A stretch of 27,225 nt of DNA. It comes from a virus. Its lineage: Duplodnaviria; Heunggongvirae; Uroviricota; Caudoviricetes. The notes below the pieces were generated by a model that saw only the letters and a program-made list of their open reading frames with translations, made no database searches and was not told where the DNA came from. The DNA lies in the IMG/VR virus record IMGVR_UViG_2541047770_000002. One strand, 5' to 3'. Position numbers and translations under genes: made by a program. Positions 1 to 27,225 of the stretch are shown here, piece by piece (position 1 is the stretch's first letter; each line of letters opens with the position of its first letter).

Positions 1-1962
1 AACGCCGAAATATTTCAGCGCAGCCGCAAAGGCTTTATAGAGCAGGCCTGCCGGCGACCAGTTAATCAGCAACTTACCAGTTCCCACAATGCCGCCGTTA
101 AAGGCTTCCTGAATGTCAGCCCAGCGCTGTTTAAACCAACCACTGACAGCCCCCCAGTTGCGGTAGATAAGGTAAGCTGCTGCCGCGACAGCGGTGATAA
201 CGAGACCGATGGGATTCATCATCAGCGCTCGCCCAATCCAGAGAACGGCACGTGCAGCGCTCATAAAACCGCGAACGAGGCTGCCCGCCAGAACTTTGCT
301 GAGTTTCAGTCCTCCGCTGGTCAGTCGGCTGAATCCAGTGACAAGCCAGCGTAATTTGCCACCTTCTCCGAGTGCGGTAGTCAGTCGATGCCAGTTGGTC
401 CGGAGTAAAACAGCATTTTTCCAGACACTTACAAAGGGGGAAATAAGGAGATTCAGCCCCAGTTTGAGACCAACAGTCGCTATCTTAATCGCAAGGAGCG
501 CACTGATGAGCTTAAAAGCCCCACTGACAAATTGCGGGTGAGTCGCTACCCAGTGTTTTGCCCCCTGAATGAGTGGAAGCAGTTCCTGAGTCAAAGAAAT
601 AAAAGATGGAGCTAATTGATCGCCCAGCGTAATTGCCAGATCGCGACTGCTGACCATAAGTGTTTTAGTGGCTTCAAGGGGAGATTTCAGTCGCTGATCG
701 TAAGCACTGGCAAGCAAATCGTTATCCGCAGCCCTGAGAGCACCGGCACGGATCTCTCGATATCTGTCCATGTTGGCCAGCATCGGGCGGATAAATGCCA
801 TGACCTGCATATCCGCGAACATATCACCCAGACCAAAGTTTTTCGCCAGAGCCTGAAGTGCCTCATCTCTTGCCGTATCATTCTTTATTTTCATGGCTGA
901 TTTGAAGCCGGCCAGCGCTTCGGGGCTTTTGGCATTGAGGTAACGTTCTATAACACTCAACATCCCTTCAATCGGAGAGATCCCCGCAGCTTTATAACTC
1001 GCAATAGATCCCTGCAAATCAATACCCAGATCAGCAAACTGTTTCTGAGTATCGCGGGCAAAAATTTTGGTAAGAAAGTTTTTAAAATTATTGGCTGCTT
1101 CGTCGGTGGAACCTGCACCGATTTTTGCTATCTGGAGACTGGCCCCGATTTCAGCAACAGCCTCTTTTCCACTGGCAATACCCGCCATCATTGGGGCCAG
1201 GGACTGCATCCACTTGACCTGATCCGGGATTTCAAATGACCCCTGGTCACCGGCATAAGCCATAATATTCTGAACGGCACCAAAATCTCTGGCCGCACCT
1301 TTCAGGGAGTTTTGCCAGACTGCGGCCACTTTTGCCCAGTCCTGAGCAGACGTGCGTGTTGCCGTTGCCGCGCGGGCAATATCCGGCATCAGAAAACCGA
1401 TATCTGACACATTATCAATATTGTCGCTGATGAGTGAACCCACCGCCTCCTGCAGCTCATCCTGATACTGATTGTATTTAAGCGCCCAGCCTTTTATCTG
1501 TCCGGCAAGTCCATCCCGCGTTTTATTGTCATATTTTGCGGTGATCGACATATCAATCATTTTGTCCTGAAAAGACATGGACTGCTGAACGGCAGGGGAA
1601 ACCGTATGATAAACAGTCTGTGCCATGCCATACGCTTCAATCCCCTGACCATACAGCGCCATGCGGTTAGCTTTCAGCGCATCACTGGTAGCGGATGCCG
1701 CTGACAGACGGCGCTGCTGGCGCTCAATTTGCTCCATGGTGCGGCTTACCCGCAGCAGCTCGCTGTTGAGATGCTGCATCCGGGAAGAACCCAGTTGACC
1801 ATAACGTTCTGTTGCACGGGTTAAAGCGTTCTGACGTTCCTGCAGGCGGCGTGAGGTATCGCTCAGGGAATCAAGCGCACGGCGGGTACCGCTCATTGCA
1901 GAACGGAATGTGCTACCAATCATCCCGCCGATAACAACGCCGACTGAAAACTGTCCCGACAT
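1..1962 (-). CDS. Phage tail tape measure protein (N-terminal part; gene continues past window start)
   Basis: ATG at 1962 preceded by GGAGG; translation MSGQFSVGVVIGGMIGSTF... stays open to position 1 in this frame (checked by hand near 600-660 and 1090-1962); Ala/Gln-rich coiled-coil composition; sits after tail chaperone pair as in Mu-like and P2-like tails. Not in ORF track because no stop codon lies inside the window. Confidence 0.75.
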   Translation of the reverse strand, partial: MSGQFSVGVVIGGMIGSTFRSAMSGTRRALDSLSDTSRRLQERQNALTRATERYGQLGSSRMQHLNSELLRVSRTMEQIERQQRRLSAASATSDALKANRMALYGQGIEAYGMAQTVYHTVSPAVQQSMSFQDKMIDMSITAKYDNKTRDGLAGQIKGWALKYNQYQDELQEAVGSLISDNIDNVSDIGFLMPDIARAATATRTSAQDWAKVAAVWQNSLKGAARDFGAVQNIMAYAGDQGSFEIPDQVKWMQSLAPMMAGIASGKEAVAEIGASLQIAKIGAGSTDEAANNFKNFLTKIFARDTQKQFADLGIDLQGSIASYKAAGISPIEGMLSVIERYLNAKSPEALAGFKSAMKIKNDTARDEALQALAKNFGLGDMFADMQVMAFIRPMLANMDRYREIRAGALRAADNDLLASAYDQRLKSPLEATKTLMVSSRDLAITLGDQLAPSFISLTQELLPLIQGAKHWVATHPQFVSGAFKLISALLAIKIATVGLKLGLNLLISPFVSVWKNAVLLRTNWHRLTTALGEGGKLRWLVTGFSRLTSGGLKLSKVLAGSLVRGFMSAARAVLWIGRALMMNPIGLVITAVAAAAYLIYRNWGAVSGWFKQRWADIQEAFNGGIVGTGKLLINWSPAGLLYKAFAAALKYFGV

Positions 1963-15841: not shown

Positions 15842-15971
15842 GTGTGTCTCCTTATCTGGTGGAGACAGCATCACAAATACAGGGCGCGAAGGATTTTAAA
15901 GCGCGTTAAGAGAGCCGGGGATACGGGATGTGCAGGATAAACGATGAATTATTCACAGAGGAGAATACGAT
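15842..15971. promoter_or_regulatory. Divergent intergenic region: probable late-operon promoter (minus) and promoter/operator of gene 15972..16700 (plus)
   Basis: 130-bp non-coding gap between divergent start codons; contains small palindrome TGAATTATTCA at 15945..15955 resembling the half-sites of the repressor-ner operator. Confidence 0.3.
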
Positions 15972-16700
15972 ATGACGCAGACACTGAATCCGGTCATCAC
16001 TGTCACCGTGTCCGGTCCTGTGGGCAGCGGTAAAAGTTACATATTGGCGCGGATAGAGGAAGTGGTGAAACAGGAATTCGGAAACAGCGTCATTGTCGAC
16101 GCCGCAGACGTGGACGGTGAGCGCCGTATGAGTGGGGATGATCTGAGCACATGGCAGAAACCACGGGCTGGCACAGTGATCAGGCTGGAGGAATACACGG
16201 GACAGGGCCTGTTGTCATACGGCGAGGAGCGTATCTGTCGGACGAATGAGCTGCTGGATGTTATATGCCCCACGGGCCGGCAACCCTGGATACTGCCCGA
16301 TGCACTGCATGCCACCATTGCGGCACTGATGACAGTTTACGATCAGGAGCTGCTCATGAAGGAGTTACGTAAACTCACTGGTCAGTCAACAGAATGTTGT
16401 TCGTCCCCGAAGTACGGCAAACAGGAACACATCCCGATTAACCAGCCTCCCCGGTTCTTCGACGAATACCTTCTGACACCGGAAAATAAAGCTGAGCATG
16501 AAGAGATCAAAGCGGCGTTGTTCCGGGAAATCAGGAAGATTGCTGAAATGCAGTTGGGGGGCGGGCTGGACAGAGTGATGGCGAGAGGAGAATGGGCATC
16601 GCTGTTTGAAAGAGTTTCCCCGGAATTACTTCCCCTCGCACTGGCTATCGGGATTATGCAGACAGCGGATAAACCTCACTTACGTTCATTAAACACGTAA
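15972..16700 (+). CDS. Hypothetical protein with Walker-A-like motif (GPVGSGKS)
   Basis: 242 aa; strong RBS AGAGGAG 8 nt before ATG; N-terminal VTVSGPVGSGKSYIL motif; no further assignable domain by eye. Confidence 0.5.
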   Translation: MTQTLNPVITVTVSGPVGSGKSYILARIEEVVKQEFGNSVIVDAADVDGERRMSGDDLSTWQKPRAGTVIRLEEYTGQGLLSYGEERICRTNELLDVICPTGRQPWILPDALHATIAALMTVYDQELLMKELRKLTGQSTECCSSPKYGKQEHIPINQPPRFFDEYLLTPENKAEHEEIKAALFREIRKIAEMQLGGGLDRVMARGEWASLFERVSPELLPLALAIGIMQTADKPHLRSLNT

Positions 16701-17080
16701 CGCATAATCCGGGATACGCATTCAGCGATGACTGCATTTTCACCGGTTTTTACTGCATCCAGAAGTGACTCTTTAAATGGTACGGGCCGGGGCTGCAGAA
16801 AGGTCGGCATGGCATTGAGCAGACAGAGCGTTTTTTCCGTGAGGACGACATCAGCCGCTCCCACAGCCAGCAACTGAGAGTAACGAATATAGCTGTTATC
16901 CCGAAGCCATATCAGCGTATCAATAAAACACCGGCACTTTTTCTGGTCGTGATCAACCTGGTCCGGGATATCGAAAAAACCAGAATAAATCAAAACCTGA
17001 GGTGCCGGATGCGTGTTCAGTAATCGGCAGAATATTTTGCCGGTGAGTACATAAAAATCATCATTTAAGGAGTGCATCAT
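16676..17080 (-). CDS. Hypothetical protein (134 aa)
   Basis: ORF on late-operon strand, convergent 25-nt overlap with 15972..16700 and start codon overlapping the divergent start of 17079..17294; weak RBS (GGGGA). Coding status uncertain. Confidence 0.35.
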   Translation of the reverse strand: MMHSLNDDFYVLTGKIFCRLLNTHPAPQVLIYSGFFDIPDQVDHDQKKCRCFIDTLIWLRDNSYIRYSQLLAVGAADVVLTEKTLCLLNAMPTFLQPRPVPFKESLLDAVKTGENAVIAECVSRIMRYVFNERK

Positions 17081-17294
17081 GAATCCCCGATTAACGTTAA
17101 CAGAACATCAGCGCCGTGCTGAAGCAGTGAACAATGTTCTGGAAGATATTATCCGGTTATACCGCGGAGAACTGAGTGTCTGTCGTGCCGCTTTTCATTT
17201 TCAGGGAATACAAAAGCAGTTTGATACTTCTGTTTTTGCAGAAGGTATTACTTATGCCCTGGACCGGATAAGGTCAGAAAATCGCCCCGGATAA
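17079..17294 (+). CDS. Hypothetical small protein (71 aa)
   Basis: Near-ideal RBS AAGGAG with 6-nt spacer before ATG 17079; upstream of dam on same strand. Confidence 0.4.
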   Translation: MNPRLTLTEHQRRAEAVNNVLEDIIRLYRGELSVCRAAFHFQGIQKQFDTSVFAEGITYALDRIRSENRPG

Positions 17295-17348
17295 TCCCTA
17301 AACCACATTAACAGAAATCCCGCCATCCCTGCCGCATCATGAAAGAAC

Positions 17349-17484: not shown

Positions 17485-18252
17485 ATGAAAATGCAGACAT
17501 TACCCATCGTGCCGTGGATTGGTGGCAAACGCCGCCTTGCAAAACACATTCTGCCGCTGTTTCCGGCGCATGAATGTTATGTGGAGCCGTTTTGTGGGGC
17601 AGCAGCGCTCTATTTTCTTAAGACACCCGGCAAGATCGAAGTCATCAATGATATCAACGGTGAACTGGTGAATCTGTACCGGGTGGTAAAGCATCACCTG
17701 GAAGAATTTGTCCGCCAGTTCAAATGGGCGCTGGTCAGCCGTCAGATCTACAAATGGCTGCAGATCACCCCGGAAGAAACACTGACGGATATCCAGCGTG
17801 CGGCACGGTTTTACTACCTTCAGAAGCAGGCGTTTGGCGGCAAGGTGGCAGAGCACAGCTTCGGTACCTCCACCACATCCCCGCCACGCTTCAACCTGCT
17901 GCGTATTGAAGAAGAACTGTCAGCGGCACACCTGCGGCTTTCCAGAACAGTCATAGAACACATGGACTGGCAACAGTGCATTGAGCGTTATGATCGTCCG
18001 CACACGCTGTTCTACTGCGACCCACCGTACCTGGGTACGGAAGGCTATGGTGTGGATTTTCCTGAAGGGAACTACTCGCGGCTGGCAGAGCTGGCCCGGT
18101 GCATCAGAGGAAAGATGATTATATCGGTCAACGATATCCCGGAAATGCGGCAGGTTTTTAACGGTCTGAACATTCACTGTGTGAAGGTCAACTACAGTCT
18201 TGCAGGAAAGGGAACACTACGGCGCGAACTTATTGTAAGTAATTTAGAGTAG
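17485..18252 (+). CDS. dam: DNA adenine (N6) methyltransferase, Dam family
   Basis: Translation aligns by eye with E. coli Dam motifs: PWIGGKRRL (vs KWAGGK), EPFCGAAALYF (vs EPFVGAGSVF), DINGELVNLY (vs DINSDLISLY), FYCDPPY catalytic motif. Start ATG 17485 (MKMQTLPIV...); track start 17395 is upstream in frame. Confidence 0.85.
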   Translation: MKMQTLPIVPWIGGKRRLAKHILPLFPAHECYVEPFCGAAALYFLKTPGKIEVINDINGELVNLYRVVKHHLEEFVRQFKWALVSRQIYKWLQITPEETLTDIQRAARFYYLQKQAFGGKVAEHSFGTSTTSPPRFNLLRIEEELSAAHLRLSRTVIEHMDWQQCIERYDRPHTLFYCDPPYLGTEGYGVDFPEGNYSRLAELARCIRGKMIISVNDIPEMRQVFNGLNIHCVKVNYSLAGKGTLRRELIVSNLE

Positions 18253-18277
18253 GCTCAGAAGGAGGTAAGTAGTCTTG

Positions 18278-18309
18278 CATAACAATGCACCTGATGGTGC
18301 ATTGTTATG
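18278..18309. terminator. Bidirectional terminator-type hairpin between convergent dam and membrane-protein gene
   Basis: 14-bp perfect inverted repeat CATAACAATGCACC / GGTGCATTGTTATG with 4-nt loop TGAT; 26 nt after dam stop and overlapping the stop of the minus-strand gene. Confidence 0.5.
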
Positions 18310-18742
18310 ATATCACTTTGATTATATTGAATAATCGCCTACCTGTTTGTAATAAACACAACATAGACATAACAACAAGCCCAATGAGAATAGCGGCTAC
18401 AATCTCTTGATGCTTACTTTGCAGCATCAACCCAATCAAACATGTCAACACCAACACTAGCAAAACTAAGCAAGTGTAGAATGCATCGGTCATCAGACGC
18501 TTGTAATGTCCGGTTTTTTGCATGTTTTTAAGTAACGGTTTATCAAGCAATGATGCAAGTAGTGCAATTGCTGTAATAATAAAACCTAACAACGTTGCAA
18601 AGACACTGGACAATGTAGTCATGAAGTTTGGGATTGCGGCTACTGGCATATGGGGCAACTTGAACCAGTAGAGAAAACCAATCCCACATCCAATCAATAA
18701 ACTAAGCAATAGGGCCGAGTTCATCTTCTCCAATATATGCAT
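18305..18742 (-). CDS. Small four-helix integral membrane protein, RexB-like in size, topology and position (homology unverified)
   Basis: ATG 18742 with GGGAGAG 5 nt upstream (alternatives 18766, 18724); about 145 aa with four hydrophobic helices; last gene of repressor-strand operon; AT-rich. From memory of lambda RexB (144 aa, 4 TM) there may be a shared TLSS-plus-hydrophobic motif, but this was not verified. Confidence 0.6.
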   Translation of the reverse strand: MHILEKMNSALLLSLLIGCGIGFLYWFKLPHMPVAAIPNFMTTLSSVFATLLGFIITAIALLASLLDKPLLKNMQKTGHYKRLMTDAFYTCLVLLVLVLTCLIGLMLQSKHQEIVAAILIGLVVMSMLCLLQTGRRLFNIIKVIS

Positions 18743-19595
18743 TGATACTCTCCCGGTTTTCAGCATACGCAGTATCGATTAGACGGTACATGGTTTCGGC
18801 TGGAGGGAAACGAGCGTCAGTAACTACCGATTGATAGGACGAAATACGCTCGGCAATCAAATCCACAGGATGGACAACACCATCAGCATCGAACACATCA
18901 ATTACAGCCTTTTTCGCCCCAAACTCGACTAACTCTTGCATAGCAAATTTTATATTCTGCTTAAGCCTACCATCACTATCGCCACGGCGAGTATTAATCC
19001 CCATTACAATTTGCATTGTATCGGCACCTGCATCACCAAGCAGTTGTAGTGTCTTTTGACTGAAATCAGTATCAGGGTAAAACTCAGGATTACGGGGGCG
19101 AGGAATCGTCAACTGGATTTTTTTCATTTTGACATCTCCTCTCATAAGCCTAGCGATTGCATCTTTTTCCAGCAAAGGTGCGGGCTTAACCTTTGAACCA
19201 AAGATAGTTGAAAGAAATGCACTAAAACGGCTTATACCACAAGCCATATGATTATAGTGCCAACCTATAACATTGATTCGAGGATAGAATACAAAGAAAT
19301 TGCGCTCAATGATCCCTTCATCCTTGGCAAGTGGAATAGGGGTAGACTGTTTCCCTGGTGCACCTTTATCCGGAATGTTCGAGTTGCGAAATTTTCTCAA
19401 CTCTCCACTAAAAGAACCATCCGCGCGTTTTTTCAACCCCCAAATTTCTCTAGTAAAACCCTCATGGTTTGAAGAGGAAGGGCTCTGTTTATCAATTACA
19501 GATTGAAAAGCATCTCCGAGATTTGCCAGCTGATCTGTGGCCTTAAACGATAGCTGATGAAACTCAATACGATAATTTCTCACATCACCACTCAT
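18702..19595 (-). CDS. Hypothetical 297-aa soluble protein in the rexA position (no recognisable family)
   Basis: ATG 19595 with AAGGA 8 nt upstream; no TM segments; AT-rich codon usage unlike phage backbone; 3' end overlaps start of the membrane-protein gene (operon). No similarity to lambda RexA apparent by eye. Confidence 0.6.
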   Translation of the reverse strand: MSGDVRNYRIEFHQLSFKATDQLANLGDAFQSVIDKQSPSSSNHEGFTREIWGLKKRADGSFSGELRKFRNSNIPDKGAPGKQSTPIPLAKDEGIIERNFFVFYPRINVIGWHYNHMACGISRFSAFLSTIFGSKVKPAPLLEKDAIARLMRGDVKMKKIQLTIPRPRNPEFYPDTDFSQKTLQLLGDAGADTMQIVMGINTRRGDSDGRLKQNIKFAMQELVEFGAKKAVIDVFDADGVVHPVDLIAERISSYQSVVTDARFPPAETMYRLIDTAYAENRESINAYIGEDELGPIA

Positions 19596-19717
19596 ACGAT
19601 TAATCCTTAACGCGGAAAGTTCAGATGGTTAGTGCAAACAGCACATCCTACTGTTTAAATCAGCGCATATAACGAAGAGGTTTGATAACCTTGTCAATTG
19701 TTCTCATTGGGAATAGA
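19596..19717 (-). promoter_or_regulatory. Intergenic region between repressor and 297-aa gene; candidate internal promoter
   Basis: Minus-strand consensus -35 TTGACA (plus 19692..19697) with imperfect -10 candidates 17-19 nt downstream; could allow expression independent of the repressor promoter. Confidence 0.25.
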
Positions 19718-20134
19718 TTAACCCACATTTTTTAACCGCTCAATCGTTGCGGATAATTCCTTCAGTTGTTTTTCCATCTCGATCACTCGCTGTTTTTCCG
19801 CAGCGCCTCGCAGAAGATCGTTACGAACCTCGGGGTCTAGCTGCTTTAAAAGCTCAAGCATAGTAAGGTCAGCTTGGCTAAACTGCACTTGCGTCGGAGT
19901 TACGTCTACTTCTTTTGATAAACCTTGTTTTCTACCTGTTAGCAACCAATCTAAAGAAACCCCCTTTTCTTCTGCGATGTTTATGCAAATTGCATAAGGC
20001 ACAGAATCACGCTTCCTCCAACTTGCAAGTGTCTGCCTATTGACGTTAAGCGCTCTTGCCAACTCACTATCATTCTCTGCTTGGAATAGTGACATTAACC
20101 GGGAAAGCACAGCGTTAACATCTTTGTTATTCAT
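19718..20134 (-). CDS. Prophage repressor, CI-type helix-turn-helix (no peptidase domain)
   Basis: 138 aa from ATG 20134 (track start 20149 is GTG); HTH segment LARALNVNRQTLASWRKRDSVPYAICINIAEEKGVSLDWLLTG typical of phage CI-type repressor N-terminal domains; divergent from the ner-A-B early operon. Confidence 0.7.
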   Translation of the reverse strand: MNNKDVNAVLSRLMSLFQAENDSELARALNVNRQTLASWRKRDSVPYAICINIAEEKGVSLDWLLTGRKQGLSKEVDVTPTQVQFSQADLTMLELLKQLDPEVRNDLLRGAAEKQRVIEMEKQLKELSATIERLKNVG

Positions 20135-20149
20135 TTTGCGTAATTCCAC

Positions 20150-20222
20150 TTGATTTATTTATTTTGAATAAGTACATTTATTCATATTGAGTACATGATA
20201 ACCCAACTGGAACTATCCGCAT
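20150..20222. promoter_or_regulatory. Repressor / early-operon operator-promoter region
   Basis: 20-bp palindrome TGAATAA-GTACAT-TTATTCA at 20165..20184 (perfect 7-bp arms); second GTACAT copy at 20191..20196; lies between divergent repressor and ner-like starts. Confidence 0.5.
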
Positions 20223-20447
20223 ATGAATAAACAACAAGTTCGGGCACGACTAGTTGAACGAGGCAGTAGCTTGCGCCAGTTCGCGCTTAACGCAGGCTAT
20301 GAGCCACGAACAGTCACACAGGCAGTCAGTCGCTGGGCTGGTAAAAGTGAACTACCACGTGGTCGTTTGACTTATCGGATTTTGCGAGATCTATCGGTTG
20401 CAATAGGTAAAGAAGTTACCCCCGGTATCCTTAAGGAGGTGTCATGA
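20223..20447 (+). CDS. ner: Ner-like DNA-binding protein (early-operon regulator)
   Basis: 74 aa; segment LRQFALNAGYEPRTVTQAVSRWAGKSELP resembles Mu Ner (LSALSRQFGYAPTTLANALERHWPKGEQ, from memory); first gene of operon ending in transposase and B. Confidence 0.65.
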   Translation: MNKQQVRARLVERGSSLRQFALNAGYEPRTVTQAVSRWAGKSELPRGRLTYRILRDLSVAIGKEVTPGILKEVS

Positions 20448-20752
20448 ATAAACCAAATACATCAAGCGCAGGTACCCGTATTTTGCGTGTTCTTAAGGCG
20501 TTACGTGGCCACGCTCTGAACGGTATCTCCAACGGTGAACTGGCGGCAGCACTGCACGAGTCACCAGCAAACATTAATCGGGCACTCAACACCCTCATTG
20601 AAGAAGGGCTGGCCCTGAAACTGGAGAATGGACGTTTTGCACCGGGCATCCAGTTACTGCAGATCGCCATGGCTCACAGTAACGAGATGGCACGAGCGCA
20701 GGATCGTATTAACGAAATCAACCAACGTGTCATTTCAGGTAGTCGTTTATAA
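20444..20752 (+). CDS. Small winged-helix DNA-binding protein (IclR-like HTH)
   Basis: 102 aa; ATG overlaps ner stop (ATGA), AAGGAGG upstream; pattern RILRVLKAL...ISNGELAAALHESPANINRALNTLIEEGLA resembles IclR-type N-terminal wHTH. Confidence 0.45.
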   Translation: MNKPNTSSAGTRILRVLKALRGHALNGISNGELAAALHESPANINRALNTLIEEGLALKLENGRFAPGIQLLQIAMAHSNEMARAQDRINEINQRVISGSRL

Positions 20753-20762
20753 GGAGTAATCA

Positions 20763-21674
20763 ATGGGACGTACCAAATCACCAATGTCCACTGATCTGAA
20801 TGCTGAGGTGCCGCTGTCTGATGATCTCAACATCAGTCTTAATACCATGGCACAACACCGCGTGGAGATCATGCAGCAGTTCGGCGATGGTCTGCCTTAT
20901 GAACGTGATCGCATTGTTCACGAAGCACGCTTTTATATGGCACAAAGTGCTGAGGCCATGCTAGAGGCAGGTAAACGACTGATAATACTGAAAGAAAATG
21001 AACCATATGGTGATTTCATAAATATTGTCGAGTCTGAATTATCAATGTCAAAGCGTACTGCACAGGTAATGATGCAGGCATCAATAAAATATTTATCACC
21101 ACAACTTGAGTCAAAAGCGCAGACGTTTGCGCTTTTAGGAAAAGCCAAATTATTCGAGTTAATGACGGAAGACGATGAAAACCTTGCCGAACTGGCTGAT
21201 GGTGGCACTGTTGCCGGCCTGACGCTTGACGACGTTGATCGCATGTCAGTACGCGAACTTCGCCAGGCCCTGCGCGAAGCGCGCGAAACCAACGCAGCAC
21301 AACAGCGCGTACTCGCCGATAAAAATGAAAAAATTGATTCTCTCTCTACCAGACTGGAAAAGAAATCCCGTATTCAGCCGCCTGAGCCTGATGAGGAGGT
21401 TAAGAAGCTGCGGGCGGAAGTGACAGCATTAGCGGTTGAGGCGGAATCTGCTATCGCCGTCCGACTGTCCAGCGCTTTTGAGACACTGTGCGCATATTGT
21501 GCTGAAAACATGATTGATACTCCCAGAGACTTCATGGCAGGCCTGGTCTGTCAACTGGAAAGCACAGCGCGTAGCCTGCGCTCCACATTTGACCTGCCGG
21601 ACGAGCCAACAGGCAATGCAGCGCCTTCATGGCTGACTGAGCCGACGCCACAGATTAACGGGCTGGAGGCATAA
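20763..21674 (+). CDS. Hypothetical coiled-coil early protein
   Basis: 303 aa, AAGGAG RBS; central coiled-coil region; a gene of similar character sits before the transposase in several Mu-like prophages (recollection, unverified). Confidence 0.5.
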   Translation: MGRTKSPMSTDLNAEVPLSDDLNISLNTMAQHRVEIMQQFGDGLPYERDRIVHEARFYMAQSAEAMLEAGKRLIILKENEPYGDFINIVESELSMSKRTAQVMMQASIKYLSPQLESKAQTFALLGKAKLFELMTEDDENLAELADGGTVAGLTLDDVDRMSVRELRQALREARETNAAQQRVLADKNEKIDSLSTRLEKKSRIQPPEPDEEVKKLRAEVTALAVEAESAIAVRLSSAFETLCAYCAENMIDTPRDFMAGLVCQLESTARSLRSTFDLPDEPTGNAAPSWLTEPTPQINGLEA

Positions 21675-24643: not shown

Positions 24644-24810
24644 TGCGTATTTTCATGAAAGGAGATCACTCAATAACTTCCATCGAGATCGGGTAATAAC
24701 ATTTGAACAGATCGCTGAATAACATCGATGGAGATCACTTTTGACTCATTTTGTTATTCAGTGATCTCCATCAATGTTATTGGAACTTCACAGGTGTGTT
24801 GATCTGTATC
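24644..24810. repeat. Left terminal inverted repeat region of IS with multiple internal repeats
   Basis: GGAGATC-containing motifs at 24661, 24685, 24730 and inverted at 24763; six GATC sites within about 160 bp. Confidence 0.6.
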
Positions 24811-24836
24811 TTTTGCCATTCCGGTAAAGGATACCT

Positions 24837-26378
24837 ATGCCAACAGTTCCAATTTCTATGAGAAAACTTAAAGAAATTCTTAGGCTTAAATACGGTGTTG
24901 GACTCAGCCATCGACAAATTGGTCGTAGTCTTGCAATCTCCCCTTCCGTTGTATCCAGATATGCTAATCGGGCGGCTCAACTTGGCATAAAGCAGTGGCC
25001 CTTACCTACAGGATGGGATGATACAAAACTAAAACATGCGTTCCTTCAGACCCAGGTTAAGATGAAGAAGCACTCTCTGCCTGACTGGGCTACAGTACAC
25101 CGGGAACTGCGTAATAAATGCGTGACGCTGCAGCTACTCTGGGAAGAATACTGTGAGCGTAATCCAGGCGGTTTTTACAGCTATAACCATTACTGCCGGA
25201 TGTACCGTGAATGGCTCAAAACCACTTCACCATCAATGCGTCAGGTACATAAAGCTGGCGAAAAACTTTTCGTTGATTACTGTGGACCTACCGTTGGCGT
25301 TACCGACCCTGAGACCGGAGAAATAAAAACTGCTCAGGTCATCGTAGCTGTTCTCGGGGCATCAAGTTACACATGGGCAGAGGCCACCTGGTCTCAGCAG
25401 CTTGAAGACTGGGTGATGAGTCATGTTCGCTGCTTCCAGTGGTTGGGTGGCGTTCCTGAACTTGTTGTTCCGGACAATCTGAAAAGCGCCACATCCAGGG
25501 CATGTAAGTATGATCCTGACGTTAACCCTACCTACCAGCAGATGCTTGAGCATTATAATGTCGCAGTTTTGCCTGCGCGGCCACGTAAACCGAAAGATAA
25601 AGCCAAAGCTGAAGTTGGCGTTCAGGTTGTTGAACGCTGGATCATGGCCCGAATCAGGCATGAGATCTTCTACAGCCTTGCATCGCTTAATCAGCGCATT
25701 CGGGAGTTGCTGGAAAGACTGAATAACAAAATAATGCAGAAGTTGGGTTATTCACGTGCAGAACTCTTCATCCAGCTTGATAAACCCGCACTGAAGCCTC
25801 TTCCTGAAGCCAGTTACAGTTACACCCTGGTGAAGAAAGTCAGAGTTCATGCCGATTACCACGTGGAAATCGACAAACATTACTACTCGGTTCCATGTTC
25901 GCTGTTAGGCCAGCAACTGGAAGCATGGATCTCCGGAGAACTGGTAAGACTCTTCAATCAGGGGCAGGAGGTTGCTGTGCACCCGCGCAAGCGTACTTAT
26001 GGCTACAGTACCCGCAACGAGCACATGCCTGAAGCTCATCGACAGCATGCCACCTGGACGCCAGAGCGTCTTCTGGAATGGGCGGGGCACATAGGCAGTG
26101 AAACTCATAGTTATGTGCTTCATATACTGAACTCTCGTCCACATCCGGAACAAAGCTATCGCTTCTGCCTTGGACTCCTGAACCTTCATAAAAAATACAG
26201 TAAAGCCAGACTTAATGCAGCATGTGCAAGAGCTCTGAAAACAAAGGTATGGCGTCTGTCAGGTATTAAATCGATCCTGGAAAAAGGTCTGGATAAACAA
26301 CCTGTTCAGGATCCAAAACCAGATCTGTTATCCACGATGGAACACGAAAACGTACGCGGCAGTGAGTATTACCACTGA
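24837..26378 (+). CDS. istA: IS21-family transposase IstA
   Basis: 513 aa; N-terminal HTH (GLSHRQIGRSLAISPSVVSRY), DDE-type core; followed 11 nt later by istB. Confidence 0.85.
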   Translation: MPTVPISMRKLKEILRLKYGVGLSHRQIGRSLAISPSVVSRYANRAAQLGIKQWPLPTGWDDTKLKHAFLQTQVKMKKHSLPDWATVHRELRNKCVTLQLLWEEYCERNPGGFYSYNHYCRMYREWLKTTSPSMRQVHKAGEKLFVDYCGPTVGVTDPETGEIKTAQVIVAVLGASSYTWAEATWSQQLEDWVMSHVRCFQWLGGVPELVVPDNLKSATSRACKYDPDVNPTYQQMLEHYNVAVLPARPRKPKDKAKAEVGVQVVERWIMARIRHEIFYSLASLNQRIRELLERLNNKIMQKLGYSRAELFIQLDKPALKPLPEASYSYTLVKKVRVHADYHVEIDKHYYSVPCSLLGQQLEAWISGELVRLFNQGQEVAVHPRKRTYGYSTRNEHMPEAHRQHATWTPERLLEWAGHIGSETHSYVLHILNSRPHPEQSYRFCLGLLNLHKKYSKARLNAACARALKTKVWRLSGIKSILEKGLDKQPVQDPKPDLLSTMEHENVRGSEYYH

Positions 26379-26389
26379 TACGGGATCCA

Positions 26390-27139
26390 ATGATGAATCA
26401 TCTTTACGAACAACTGACCGCACTTAAACTCACCGGCTTCCGTGATGCGCTTAAAAAGCAACTTGCTCAGCCGGGCACATACCAGGAGCTGGGCTTCGAA
26501 GAACGCCTGTCATTACTGACAGCAGAAGAACTAACCTGCCGTGAAAACAGGAAGGCAGAGCGTCTGATCAAACATGCACGGTTCAGACTTAATGCTGAGT
26601 TATCAAAGCTGGATTATCGTAACAATAGAGGGCTGGACAGGGCCCTCATCCGTTCACTCAGTCAGGGAAACTGGTTAACCCTGAAACAAAATATTTTACT
26701 GACCGGGGCCACCGGCAGCGGTAAAACGTTCCTGGCATGTGCACTTGGTCATAATGCCTGCCGACAGGGATACAAGGTCTACTATTATCGCCTTAAAGCG
26801 CTGATGGAACAGTGCTATCAGGGGCATGCTGATGGAAGATACAGCAAACTTTTGACCAGGCTGAATAATAGCGATCTGCTGCTTCTGGATGACTGGGGGC
26901 TGGAACCTCTCTCATCAGAACAGCGTAGCGACCTGCTGGAAATAGTGGATCTGATGTACCAACGAGGCTCAATCATCGTAGTGAGCCAGTTGCCGGTGGA
27001 AAACTGGTACAAAATGATCGGAGACTCCACACATGCGGATGCCATCCTAGATCGACTGGTTCATGGCAGTATCAAGATCGAACTTAAAGGAGAATCAATG
27101 CGGAAAATACAATCTCCGTTGACCGAAGGAGATCAGTGA
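26390..27139 (+). CDS. istB: IS21-family helper ATPase IstB
   Basis: 249 aa; Walker A LLTGATGSGKTFLACALG, Walker B LLLLDDWG; canonical IstB size. Confidence 0.85.
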   Translation: MMNHLYEQLTALKLTGFRDALKKQLAQPGTYQELGFEERLSLLTAEELTCRENRKAERLIKHARFRLNAELSKLDYRNNRGLDRALIRSLSQGNWLTLKQNILLTGATGSGKTFLACALGHNACRQGYKVYYYRLKALMEQCYQGHADGRYSKLLTRLNNSDLLLLDDWGLEPLSSEQRSDLLEIVDLMYQRGSIIVVSQLPVENWYKMIGDSTHADAILDRLVHGSIKIELKGESMRKIQSPLTEGDQ

Positions 27140-27164
27140 AGGTAATTTAAAAACGGTTCTGTGA

Positions 27165-27224
27165 AAGTGACACGAACCGATCTCCATCGATGTTACTCAC
27201 CGATCTCCTTCACGGTAATACGCA
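27165..27224. repeat. Right terminal inverted repeat region of IS
   Basis: Reverse complement TTGCGTATTACCGTGAAGGAGATCGGTGAGTAACATCGATGGAGATCGG aligns with left end (24643..24700). Confidence 0.6.
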
Positions 27225-27225
27225 A

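Follow-up and report, generated by a model that had tools for sequence, protein, structure and literature searches.

The stretch of DNA analysed here, called the window below, comprises the 27,225 nucleotides of the IMG/VR virus record IMGVR_UViG_2541047770_000002 and is a BcepMu-like transposable prophage of Escherichia coli. Its immunity region lies in an AT-rich island between a methylase gene and the early genes. Two unnamed genes adjoin a CI-like repressor gene there and have the same orientation, the first of them (gene A) encoding a protein of 297 and the second (gene B) a protein of 145 amino acids, and a ner-like gene diverges from the repressor on the other side of a short operator region (Table 1). 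The island is a mosaic of two modules with different histories, a switch and a cargo, and the two cargo genes probably constitute a RexAB-type pair from a large uncharacterised family.

Table 1. Features of the AT-rich island and its borders, in window positions
Feature	Position	Strand	Description
Left edge of the exchanged segment	18210-18252	+	3'-terminal 14 codons of the gene for a Dam-like DNA adenine methylase (17485-18252)
Hairpin	18277-18309		Perfect 14-bp stem and 4-nt loop between the convergent methylase and B genes; overlaps the B stop codon
Gene B, RexB-like partner	18305-18742	-	Putative inner-membrane protein of 145 amino acids with four predicted helices; RefSeq calls the same 438-nt gene
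Gene A, RexA-like protein	18702-19595	-	297 amino acids; putative divergent member of the DUF6731 family
Spacer between repressor and A genes	19596-19717	-	Module junction at 19698/19699; TTGACA on the minus strand at 19692-19697
CI-like immunity repressor	19718-20134	-	138 amino acids; 143 with a GTG start at 20149
Divergent promoter/operator region	20127-20222		Three direct copies of TTATTYATWTTG at 20127, 20155 and 20178
Ner/Cro-like early regulator	20223-20447	+	74 amino acids; right-hand gene of the exchanged immunity module
Milder AT-rich shoulder	20444-21185	+	About 49% G+C; backbone genes for an IclR-type helix-turn-helix protein of 102 amino acids and the first half of a DUF3102 protein

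Composition of the immunity region

An earlier note on this DNA had described the repressor and the two genes downstream of it as an island far richer in A and T than the phage backbone, and the island was recovered by computation. Positions 18253-20222 contain 41.2% G+C as compared with 54.8% in the remainder of the window, and only 92 of 25,256 sliding windows of equal length are as low, all of them at the same place, the lowest beginning at 18227. Along the sliding-window profile the G+C content sinks to 39-44% between about 18.0 and 20.5 kb, inside phage DNA of 55-60%; the E. coli host has a G+C content of about 51%. For the 60 nucleotides 19201-19260 the estimate of about 35% was exact (35.0%), and the 63% quoted for the sheath gene lies inside the 60-mer range of 45-65% but above the mean of the gene, 57.3%.

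The compositional difference is one of codon choice and goes beyond amino-acid content alone. The G+C content of third codon positions (GC3) is 0.44 in gene B, 0.36 in gene A, 0.41 in the repressor gene and 0.36 in the ner-like gene, as compared with a mean of 0.634 in 22 core phage genes (standard deviation 0.05, minimum 0.543; Mann-Whitney p = 6.7e-5). Island and backbone also differ in their use of synonymous codons (chi2 = 436, 41 degrees of freedom, p = 1e-67), and adaptation to the codon usage of the backbone is 0.34-0.52 for the island genes versus 0.63-0.80. G+C content and codon usage, two of the checks which had been proposed for the island, thus both set it apart significantly from the rest of the prophage.

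On the left of the island the G+C content changes abruptly, with change points at 18110-18226, and on the right it changes in steps, first at about 20240 (41% to about 49%) and then at about 21185 (49% to 58%). That the island coincides with the immunity region was seen correctly; its right boundary had been drawn too far to the left, wrongly leaving out the ner-like gene with its low GC3. The step from 20444 to 21185 consists of conserved backbone, which has 87-95% identity in relatives with other immunity modules and is AT-shifted as well, so that AT-richness is not limited to swapped DNA.

The cargo pair was compared with its flanks in 26 loci, in which the flanks range from 37 to 70% G+C. 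The G+C content of the pair follows that of the flanks (r = 0.89, slope 0.74), averages about 9 points below them and is lower in 25 of the 26 loci, the exception being a Citrobacter island where both are equal. Because this offset is constant across contexts, AT-richness appears to be a standing property of the cassette rather than just the sign of a recent low-GC import.

These data bear on an explanation in which the AT-richness is mostly a by-product of gene content, namely of hydrophobic codons and of promoter and operator DNA, joined by relaxed selection on weakly expressed genes drifting under an AT mutation bias, and in which it would be uninformative about origin and regulation. The membrane gene B has indeed the lowest G+C content at first and second codon positions (0.39 and 0.32), the divergent region of 88 bp around the operators is very AT-rich, and the AT shift of the pair in all but one of the loci, in any host, and of the backbone genes to the right of the island would be expected. 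The low GC3 of the soluble A protein and of the repressor, however, leaves amino-acid content insufficient as a cause, and the left edge of the island matches a recombination breakpoint within tens of bases. This explanation is compatible with a RexAB-type identity of the genes and competes solely over the cause of the composition, for which it is regarded as doubtful.

Separate histories of switch and cargo

The immunity cassette had been suspected to be swapped between otherwise collinear prophages, and such exchanges are found. In prophages AST216 and 2014EL-1343-2 the alignment with the window ends at 18209 and resumes at 20444; between these breakpoints both prophages have 836 bp with a different repressor and a different small DNA-binding or ner gene, and without cargo. 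These two breaks in collinear homology delimit an exchangeable block, 18210-20443, in which the 14 last methylase codons and the ner-like gene are included. In 635 E. coli genomes the stretch that reaches from the methylase gene (Pfam MethyltransfD12, E 1e-29) to the DUF3102 gene has at least five size classes, the commonest of which lacks cargo; the pair is absent and the slot without cargo in most members of the prophage family, including those in strains of sequence type 131 (ST131). All slot alleles examined are AT-rich, with a G+C content of 0.42-0.45 (42.1% in the window) in flanks of 0.55-0.57. The immunity module, made up of the repressor, the repeated operators and the divergent ner-like gene, is swapped as a block between otherwise homologous phages, and the compositional island on its own is ordinary phage mosaicism.

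The proposal of the earlier note that the cassette was acquired as a unit did not hold. The switch module (19699-20443) and the cargo module (18210-19698) have different histories, as is seen when either is followed through other genomes. Repressor/ner modules about 85% identical to that of the window are carried by 39 E. coli genomes, Klebsiella phage KP12 and phage Phi06_2974, all of them with other cargo, which is either a protein of 175 amino acids or an NA37 nucleoid-associated protein together with a protein of 401 amino acids. The cargo pair, on the other hand, follows an unrelated repressor in a same-type prophage of Pectobacterium, lies on the opposite side of the methylase gene in Serratia (L014), adjoins the gene of the Q antiterminator in lambdoid prophages, and is part of a non-phage island of Citrobacter together with the toxin-antitoxin genes CbtA/CbeA and anti-restriction genes. 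In a Limnobaculum prophage (L013) with the same gene order, positions 18210-19595 are 94-96% identical to the window, compared to 74% in the repressor, 79% in the operators, 84% in the ner-like gene and 80-82% in the flanking backbone; this difference indicates a recent exchange of the cargo on its own. The same comparison shows the left border of the exchanged segment, with 93.7% identity over 18210-18304 and 81.8% in the remainder of the methylase gene.

A single low-GC import of the repressor with two passengers, quieted or tuned by nucleoid proteins of the H-NS type, was the explanation given in the earlier note. It accords with an island of 41% G+C inside a phage of 55-58%, with the absence of the entire block from some collinear relatives and with the identical gene order in Limnobaculum. 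In phage Mu the early promoter is acted upon by H-NS and the integration host factor (IHF), so that an influence of nucleoid proteins on the switch of such a transposable phage has a precedent. The unequal identities of cargo and repressor in the Limnobaculum comparison and the occurrence of either module with other partners speak against a single import, and a constant G+C offset in contexts of 37-70% is an ill fit to one low-GC donor. As to nucleoid proteins, the high-affinity H-NS motif is not enriched (18 matches in the window versus 16.6 expected, three of them in the island), a motif scan found no match to the IHF consensus, and the need of lysogeny for repressor expression argues against blanket silencing. 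This explanation as a whole is improbable.

The allele of strain FAM21845 (L004 2734-4949) was noted in its own right. The same slot holds there, behind a related repressor, a gene for an NA37/NdpA-type protein (Pfam E 1e-80) followed by that for a protein of 401 amino acids, the C-terminus of which has a weak similarity to KwaA, the membrane protein of Kiwa (PADLOC E 8e-5). Here, too, a possible membrane protein comes after one that binds DNA, and the two may be another sensor/effector cargo.

The cargo pair and its relation to RexAB

The A protein gave no direct match in Pfam, PADLOC or NCBIfam, and the family scans of the two cargo proteins led only to PHROGs without an assigned function. 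Its relatives at 40-76% identity carry the family DUF6731 (PF20505), two of them, at 73% and 47% identity, with 32.5 and 53.5 bits at a cut-off of 27. With a profile of its homologues, 1,051 clusters at 50% identity were recovered, almost all with proteins of 280-300 amino acids, and 139 of 150 sampled representatives carry PF20505. By transitive homology, then, the A protein would be a divergent DUF6731 member without a Pfam hit of its own. A sequence search of the PDB with the family profile yielded no match. A structure was predicted with AlphaFold2 (predicted local distance difference test, pLDDT, 75; predicted template modelling score 0.73). Foldseek ranked RexA first for this model (E 7.7e-8, probability 1.0) and RdgC third, and RexA was the best PDB match by two methods, with 13% identity in the structural alignment. 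In the predicted model the A protein has the two-domain fold of RexA and RdgC. A family profile of 150 sequences aligned with a profile of 30 RexA sequences at E 1.5e-4 over 219 collinear columns, covering nearly both proteins; single-sequence hhalign comparisons with lambda RexA and RexB were weak (P 0.013-0.046) though collinear. Remote homology of the A protein to RexA is well supported but not proven.

Gene B has a GGGAGAG ribosome-binding site before its ATG at 18742 and overlaps gene A by 41 nucleotides. Hydropathy analysis of its product indicates the four helices, with positive charge in the loop between helices 2 and 3 and at the C-terminus, for which reason both termini are predicted to be inside the cell. 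No match was found in Pfam, PADLOC (RexB models included) or NCBIfam. In the PHROG collection the B protein matches phrog_8552 and phrog_17119, and the latter is touched by the B protein with E 5e-5 and weakly by lambda RexB with E 0.034. Closer relatives share the motif TLLGFxIT...D[KR]xLxxNMxKTGH[YF]. A partner of this type with 140-157 amino acids is encoded behind the DUF6731 gene in 11 of 11 genome loci as well as in 22 of 22 viral contigs, hence in 33 of 33, and the pairing holds across A-protein identities from 28 to 100%.

Upstream of the pair, the 122-nt spacer to the repressor gene has no stable structure (z = -0.31) and no terminator call, which makes read-through from the repressor promoter plausible. 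Homology to prophages with other cargo starts at 19699, directly beside the TTGACA. A portable promoter upstream of the pair was also sought; the upstream DNA is not conserved across contexts. To judge from the sequence, the pair is probably expressed together with the repressor, and the TTGACA at the junction is a candidate promoter element. At the other end, the hairpin between genes B and methylase has a folding energy of -23 kcal/mol (z = -5.3 on the minus and -3.9 on the plus strand), and none of 200 shuffles folded as well. The terminator scan made no call there and the minus strand lacks a run of T; the hairpin is probably a terminator or a stabiliser of the 3' end.

The earlier note had likened the region to the immunity regions of lambdoid phages, and the likeness is closer than could be known from it. 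The order repressor, A, B corresponds to cI-rexA-rexB of lambda, with the three genes on a single strand and a cro- or ner-like gene diverging from them. Lambda RexA has 279 amino acids and RexB, with four helices like the B protein, has 144. The predicted model of the A protein shares the fold of the RexA structure (PDB 8TWQ, PMC11077077). The segment from rexB to cro in lambda is likewise AT-rich (42.4% G+C). There are also differences. Besides the low identity in the structural alignment, the pair in the window is missed by the RexA and RexB models of Pfam, PADLOC and PHROG, its genes overlap whereas rexA and rexB are 15 nucleotides apart, and it resides in a transposable element of the Mu/BcepMu type, not in a lambdoid phage, behind a repressor without the S24 cleavage domain.

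Rex-like pairs have been described in other phages, too. For RexABpp (PP_5643/PP_5644) of prophage P1 of Pseudomonas putida, phage defence has been shown, and membrane damage was observed upon overexpression of the A protein (PMC12894663). As in the window, a four-helix membrane partner is encoded in a prophage downstream of a CI-like repressor, the partner in P. putida being without detectable homology to RexB (PMC12894663); compared by description, the proteins are larger (A about 37.5 kDa with tag, B more than 181 residues) and two genes lie between the pair and the repressor. The Rex-like pairs of actinobacteriophages, Sbash gp30/31, CarolAnn gp44/43 and Butters gp30/31, exclude heterotypic phages (PMC11077077, PMC12894663). 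They likewise consist of two genes, for a soluble and a membrane protein, located in a prophage beside the immunity repressor; again by description, their hosts are Gram-positive, their A proteins have 337-372 amino acids, and in Butters the two proteins have exchanged roles. A further likeness concerns RdgC and NA37/NdpA, since FAM21845 has in the same slot an NA37 protein followed by the weakly KwaA-like one; RdgC itself is a chromosomal, stand-alone modulator of recombination without a membrane partner, and has no sequence similarity to the A protein.

The explanation considered reasonably probable is that of a two-module mosaic island in a BcepMu-like prophage, the cargo of which is RexAB-like, would be expressed in the lysogen and would have exclusion activity. 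Composition, breakpoints, mosaic histories, fold match, conserved pairing and predicted membrane topology were obtained directly, and expression in the lysogen, exclusion activity and its mechanism are what we infer in addition. A number of results weigh against it. The A protein did not match Pfam PF15969, PADLOC RexA or PHROG 12654 even at E <= 10, with positive controls in which lambda RexA was found with E 9e-110 in PADLOC and 6e-163 in PHROGs and lambda RexB was recognised by PADLOC as well, and none of 150 representatives of the DUF6731-type family matches Pfam RexA. The profile-profile probability of A with RexA is 51%. The RexA/RdgC fold is also used by proteins without a role in defence, and no literature on the function of DUF6731 proteins was found. 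For the B protein, hhalign against the RexB family gave P = 0.011 and a probability of 3.9% over 32 collinear columns in helix 2 only, so homology to lambda RexB is not established at the level of sequence; a single-sequence AlphaFold2 model was poor (pLDDT 65), and the fold search of BFVD with it returned noise (best E 3). In other elements the pair is not located behind a repressor, and expression in a lysogen is for that reason not guaranteed. The 26 loci from which the G+C offset was derived are not phylogenetically independent samples.

There is also an alternative in which the pair is not a defence system at all, the A protein being a DNA-binding accessory of the phage life cycle which modulates the switch, transposition or, like RdgC, recombination, and the B protein its anchor or an unrelated factor of superinfection exclusion or lysis timing. 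RexA acts on the lambda switch without RexB and binds DNA non-specifically (PMC11077077), its fold is common to RdgC and kinetochore proteins, and a location beside the switch of a transposable phage suits a regulatory role. The pair is portable, however, occurring near Q and in a non-phage island untied to the regulation of one phage, most family members dispense with it, and strict coupling to a membrane protein in overlapping frames at all 33 loci is the signature of a sensor and an effector, which leaves a purely regulatory pair quite unlikely.

For a RexAB-like cargo the following course of events may be envisaged. The repressor would be made in the lysogen from a promoter in the 88-bp divergent region, and the pair would be transcribed by read-through from this promoter, from a promoter at the junction or from both, with the hairpin closing the transcription unit. 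The A protein, acting as a putative DNA-binding protein, might sense a superinfecting phage and trigger the membrane protein B, upon which membrane integrity would be lost, growth arrested and the infection aborted. Like RexA, the A protein might in addition bias the switch of its own phage. The AT-richness would reflect membership of the flexible, exchangeable gene pool of phages.

More tentatively, and with a somewhat less than even chance of being right, DUF6731 proteins and their overlapping four-helix partners could represent a large unrecognised branch of RexAB-type abortive infection systems. This branch would comprise at least the above 1,051 clusters, always paired, in lambdoid and transposable prophages and genomic islands of Enterobacterales, in more distant Gammaproteobacteria and in viral contigs; in the window prophage the pair may also feed back on the switch, as RexA does in lambda, and the deficit of about 9 points of G+C might then be due to selection, for instance for nucleoid-protein-dependent control of a potentially toxic effector, and not to history. 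If the pair in the window works as a Rex-type pair, comparative work on the mechanism would gain a large and varied family, easy to clone, from E. coli and related bacteria; after 70 years it has still to be explained how infection is sensed by RexA and what triggers RexB. Standard defence annotation by PADLOC and the Pfam models of RexA and RexB would then be missing such systems, and the slot that follows the repressor gene in BcepMu-like prophages of E. coli would be a cargo hotspot worth mining.

The switch region and the remainder of the prophage

The repressor has an N-terminal helix-turn-helix domain and a C-terminal tail resembling a coiled coil, lacks an S24 peptidase domain, and matches Pfam Phage_CI_repr (E 1.2e-17) as well as PHROG repressor families. 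Besides the three exact copies of TTATTYATWTTG, allowing one mismatch gives four matches in the whole window, a number reached in none of 100 shuffles; inverted repeats are present in the region as well. The early promoter is probably formed by TTGATT (20150-20155) and TACATT (20173-20178) at a distance of 17 nucleotides, which is below the threshold of the promoter scan; its spacer holds a half-palindrome of the operator. In an alignment these hexamers lie opposite TTGACA-16-TACAAT of FAM21845 and of a further relative (L005). The promoter of the repressor itself could not be placed by consensus. The ner-like protein matches phrog_8503 (E 1e-34) and weakly HTH_35 and the BcepMu_gp16 family.

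The two relatives L004 and L005, compared over window positions 20100-20260, have the palindrome ACACAC..GTGTGT in the spacer where the window has TTATTTATTTTGAATAA, with the -35 and -10 hexamers conserved, and their repressor DNA can be aligned in part to that of the window, with about 78% identity over the promoter-distal part. Judged by these sequences, relatives with a different spacer palindrome are probably heteroimmune to the window prophage. The comparison offers a compact example of a change of operator specificity inside one type of module.

The arrangement resembles c-ner of Mu and its counterpart in BcepMu, with repressor and ner-like gene divergent around a short operator region, followed by a transposase and a B-like ATPase. 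The weak BcepMu_gp16 match of the ner-like protein and the insertion at unrelated host sites fit as well. Unlike in Mu, the late genes in the family of the window run away from the switch on the other strand, and Mu is not known to have rex-like genes following its repressor.

Over its first 24,644 bases the window matches a prophage of E. coli EC5654 with 100% identity. RefSeq annotation and family scans place Mu-type head, tail and lysis genes on the minus strand, leftward from about 15.9 kb. On the plus strand, from 20.2 kb, the ner-like gene is followed by those for the IclR-type helix-turn-helix protein, the DUF3102 protein, a DDE transposase of 589 amino acids and an ExeA-type ATPase, and in the intact EC5654 copy Gam and Mor come next. 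For the identical prophage RefSeq lists an integrase catalytic-domain protein, which is the transposase, an ExeA-family ATPase, Gam, Mor, a DUF935 portal protein and a gp16-family protein, and the Pfam families of the Pectobacterium relative agree with a BcepMu-like identity. In three strains the prophage is inserted beside nagE, within rlmI and within phoA, in the latter two interrupting the host gene; three unrelated host sites speak for insertion by transposition. The prophage family is present in about 635 of 5,426 complete E. coli genomes (about 12%), ST131 strains included. That the island might be left over from a second phage, or be due to an assembly join, was considered and rejected, the same arrangement being present with 99-100% identity in 23 complete E. 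coli genomes.

Some copies of the prophage are damaged. From position 24645, directly after the ExeA-type gene, the window contains an IS21-family element (istA 24837-26378, istB 26390-27139), which extends over 24645-27225 and stands in place of the remainder of the early operon, from Gam to Mor, of EC5654. The copy in strain E1433 has a separate insertion, of IS100 in the transposase gene, and insertion sequences are thus inactivating copies of this prophage. The Gam gene of EC5654 (L001 29025-29555) is annotated as a pseudogene with an internal stop in an otherwise intact prophage. Two further copies of window positions 1-146 occur in the tape-measure gene of EC5654 (L001 3580-3986) at 92-95% identity and a spacing of 261 nucleotides, and form a tandem repeat.

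A second variable cargo slot is located at 15913-17339, between the lysis genes and the methylase gene, and is missing entirely from the relatives FAM21845, L005 and Limnobaculum. It is on this side of the methylase gene that Serratia (L014) has its DUF6731 pair. It encodes a protein of 242 amino acids, one of 134 on the opposite strand and one of 71. The genes of the latter two are AT-rich (44-46% G+C), and the protein of 242 amino acids has an N-terminal P-loop, GPVGSGKS, and weak PADLOC matches to Csx3 and mad8.

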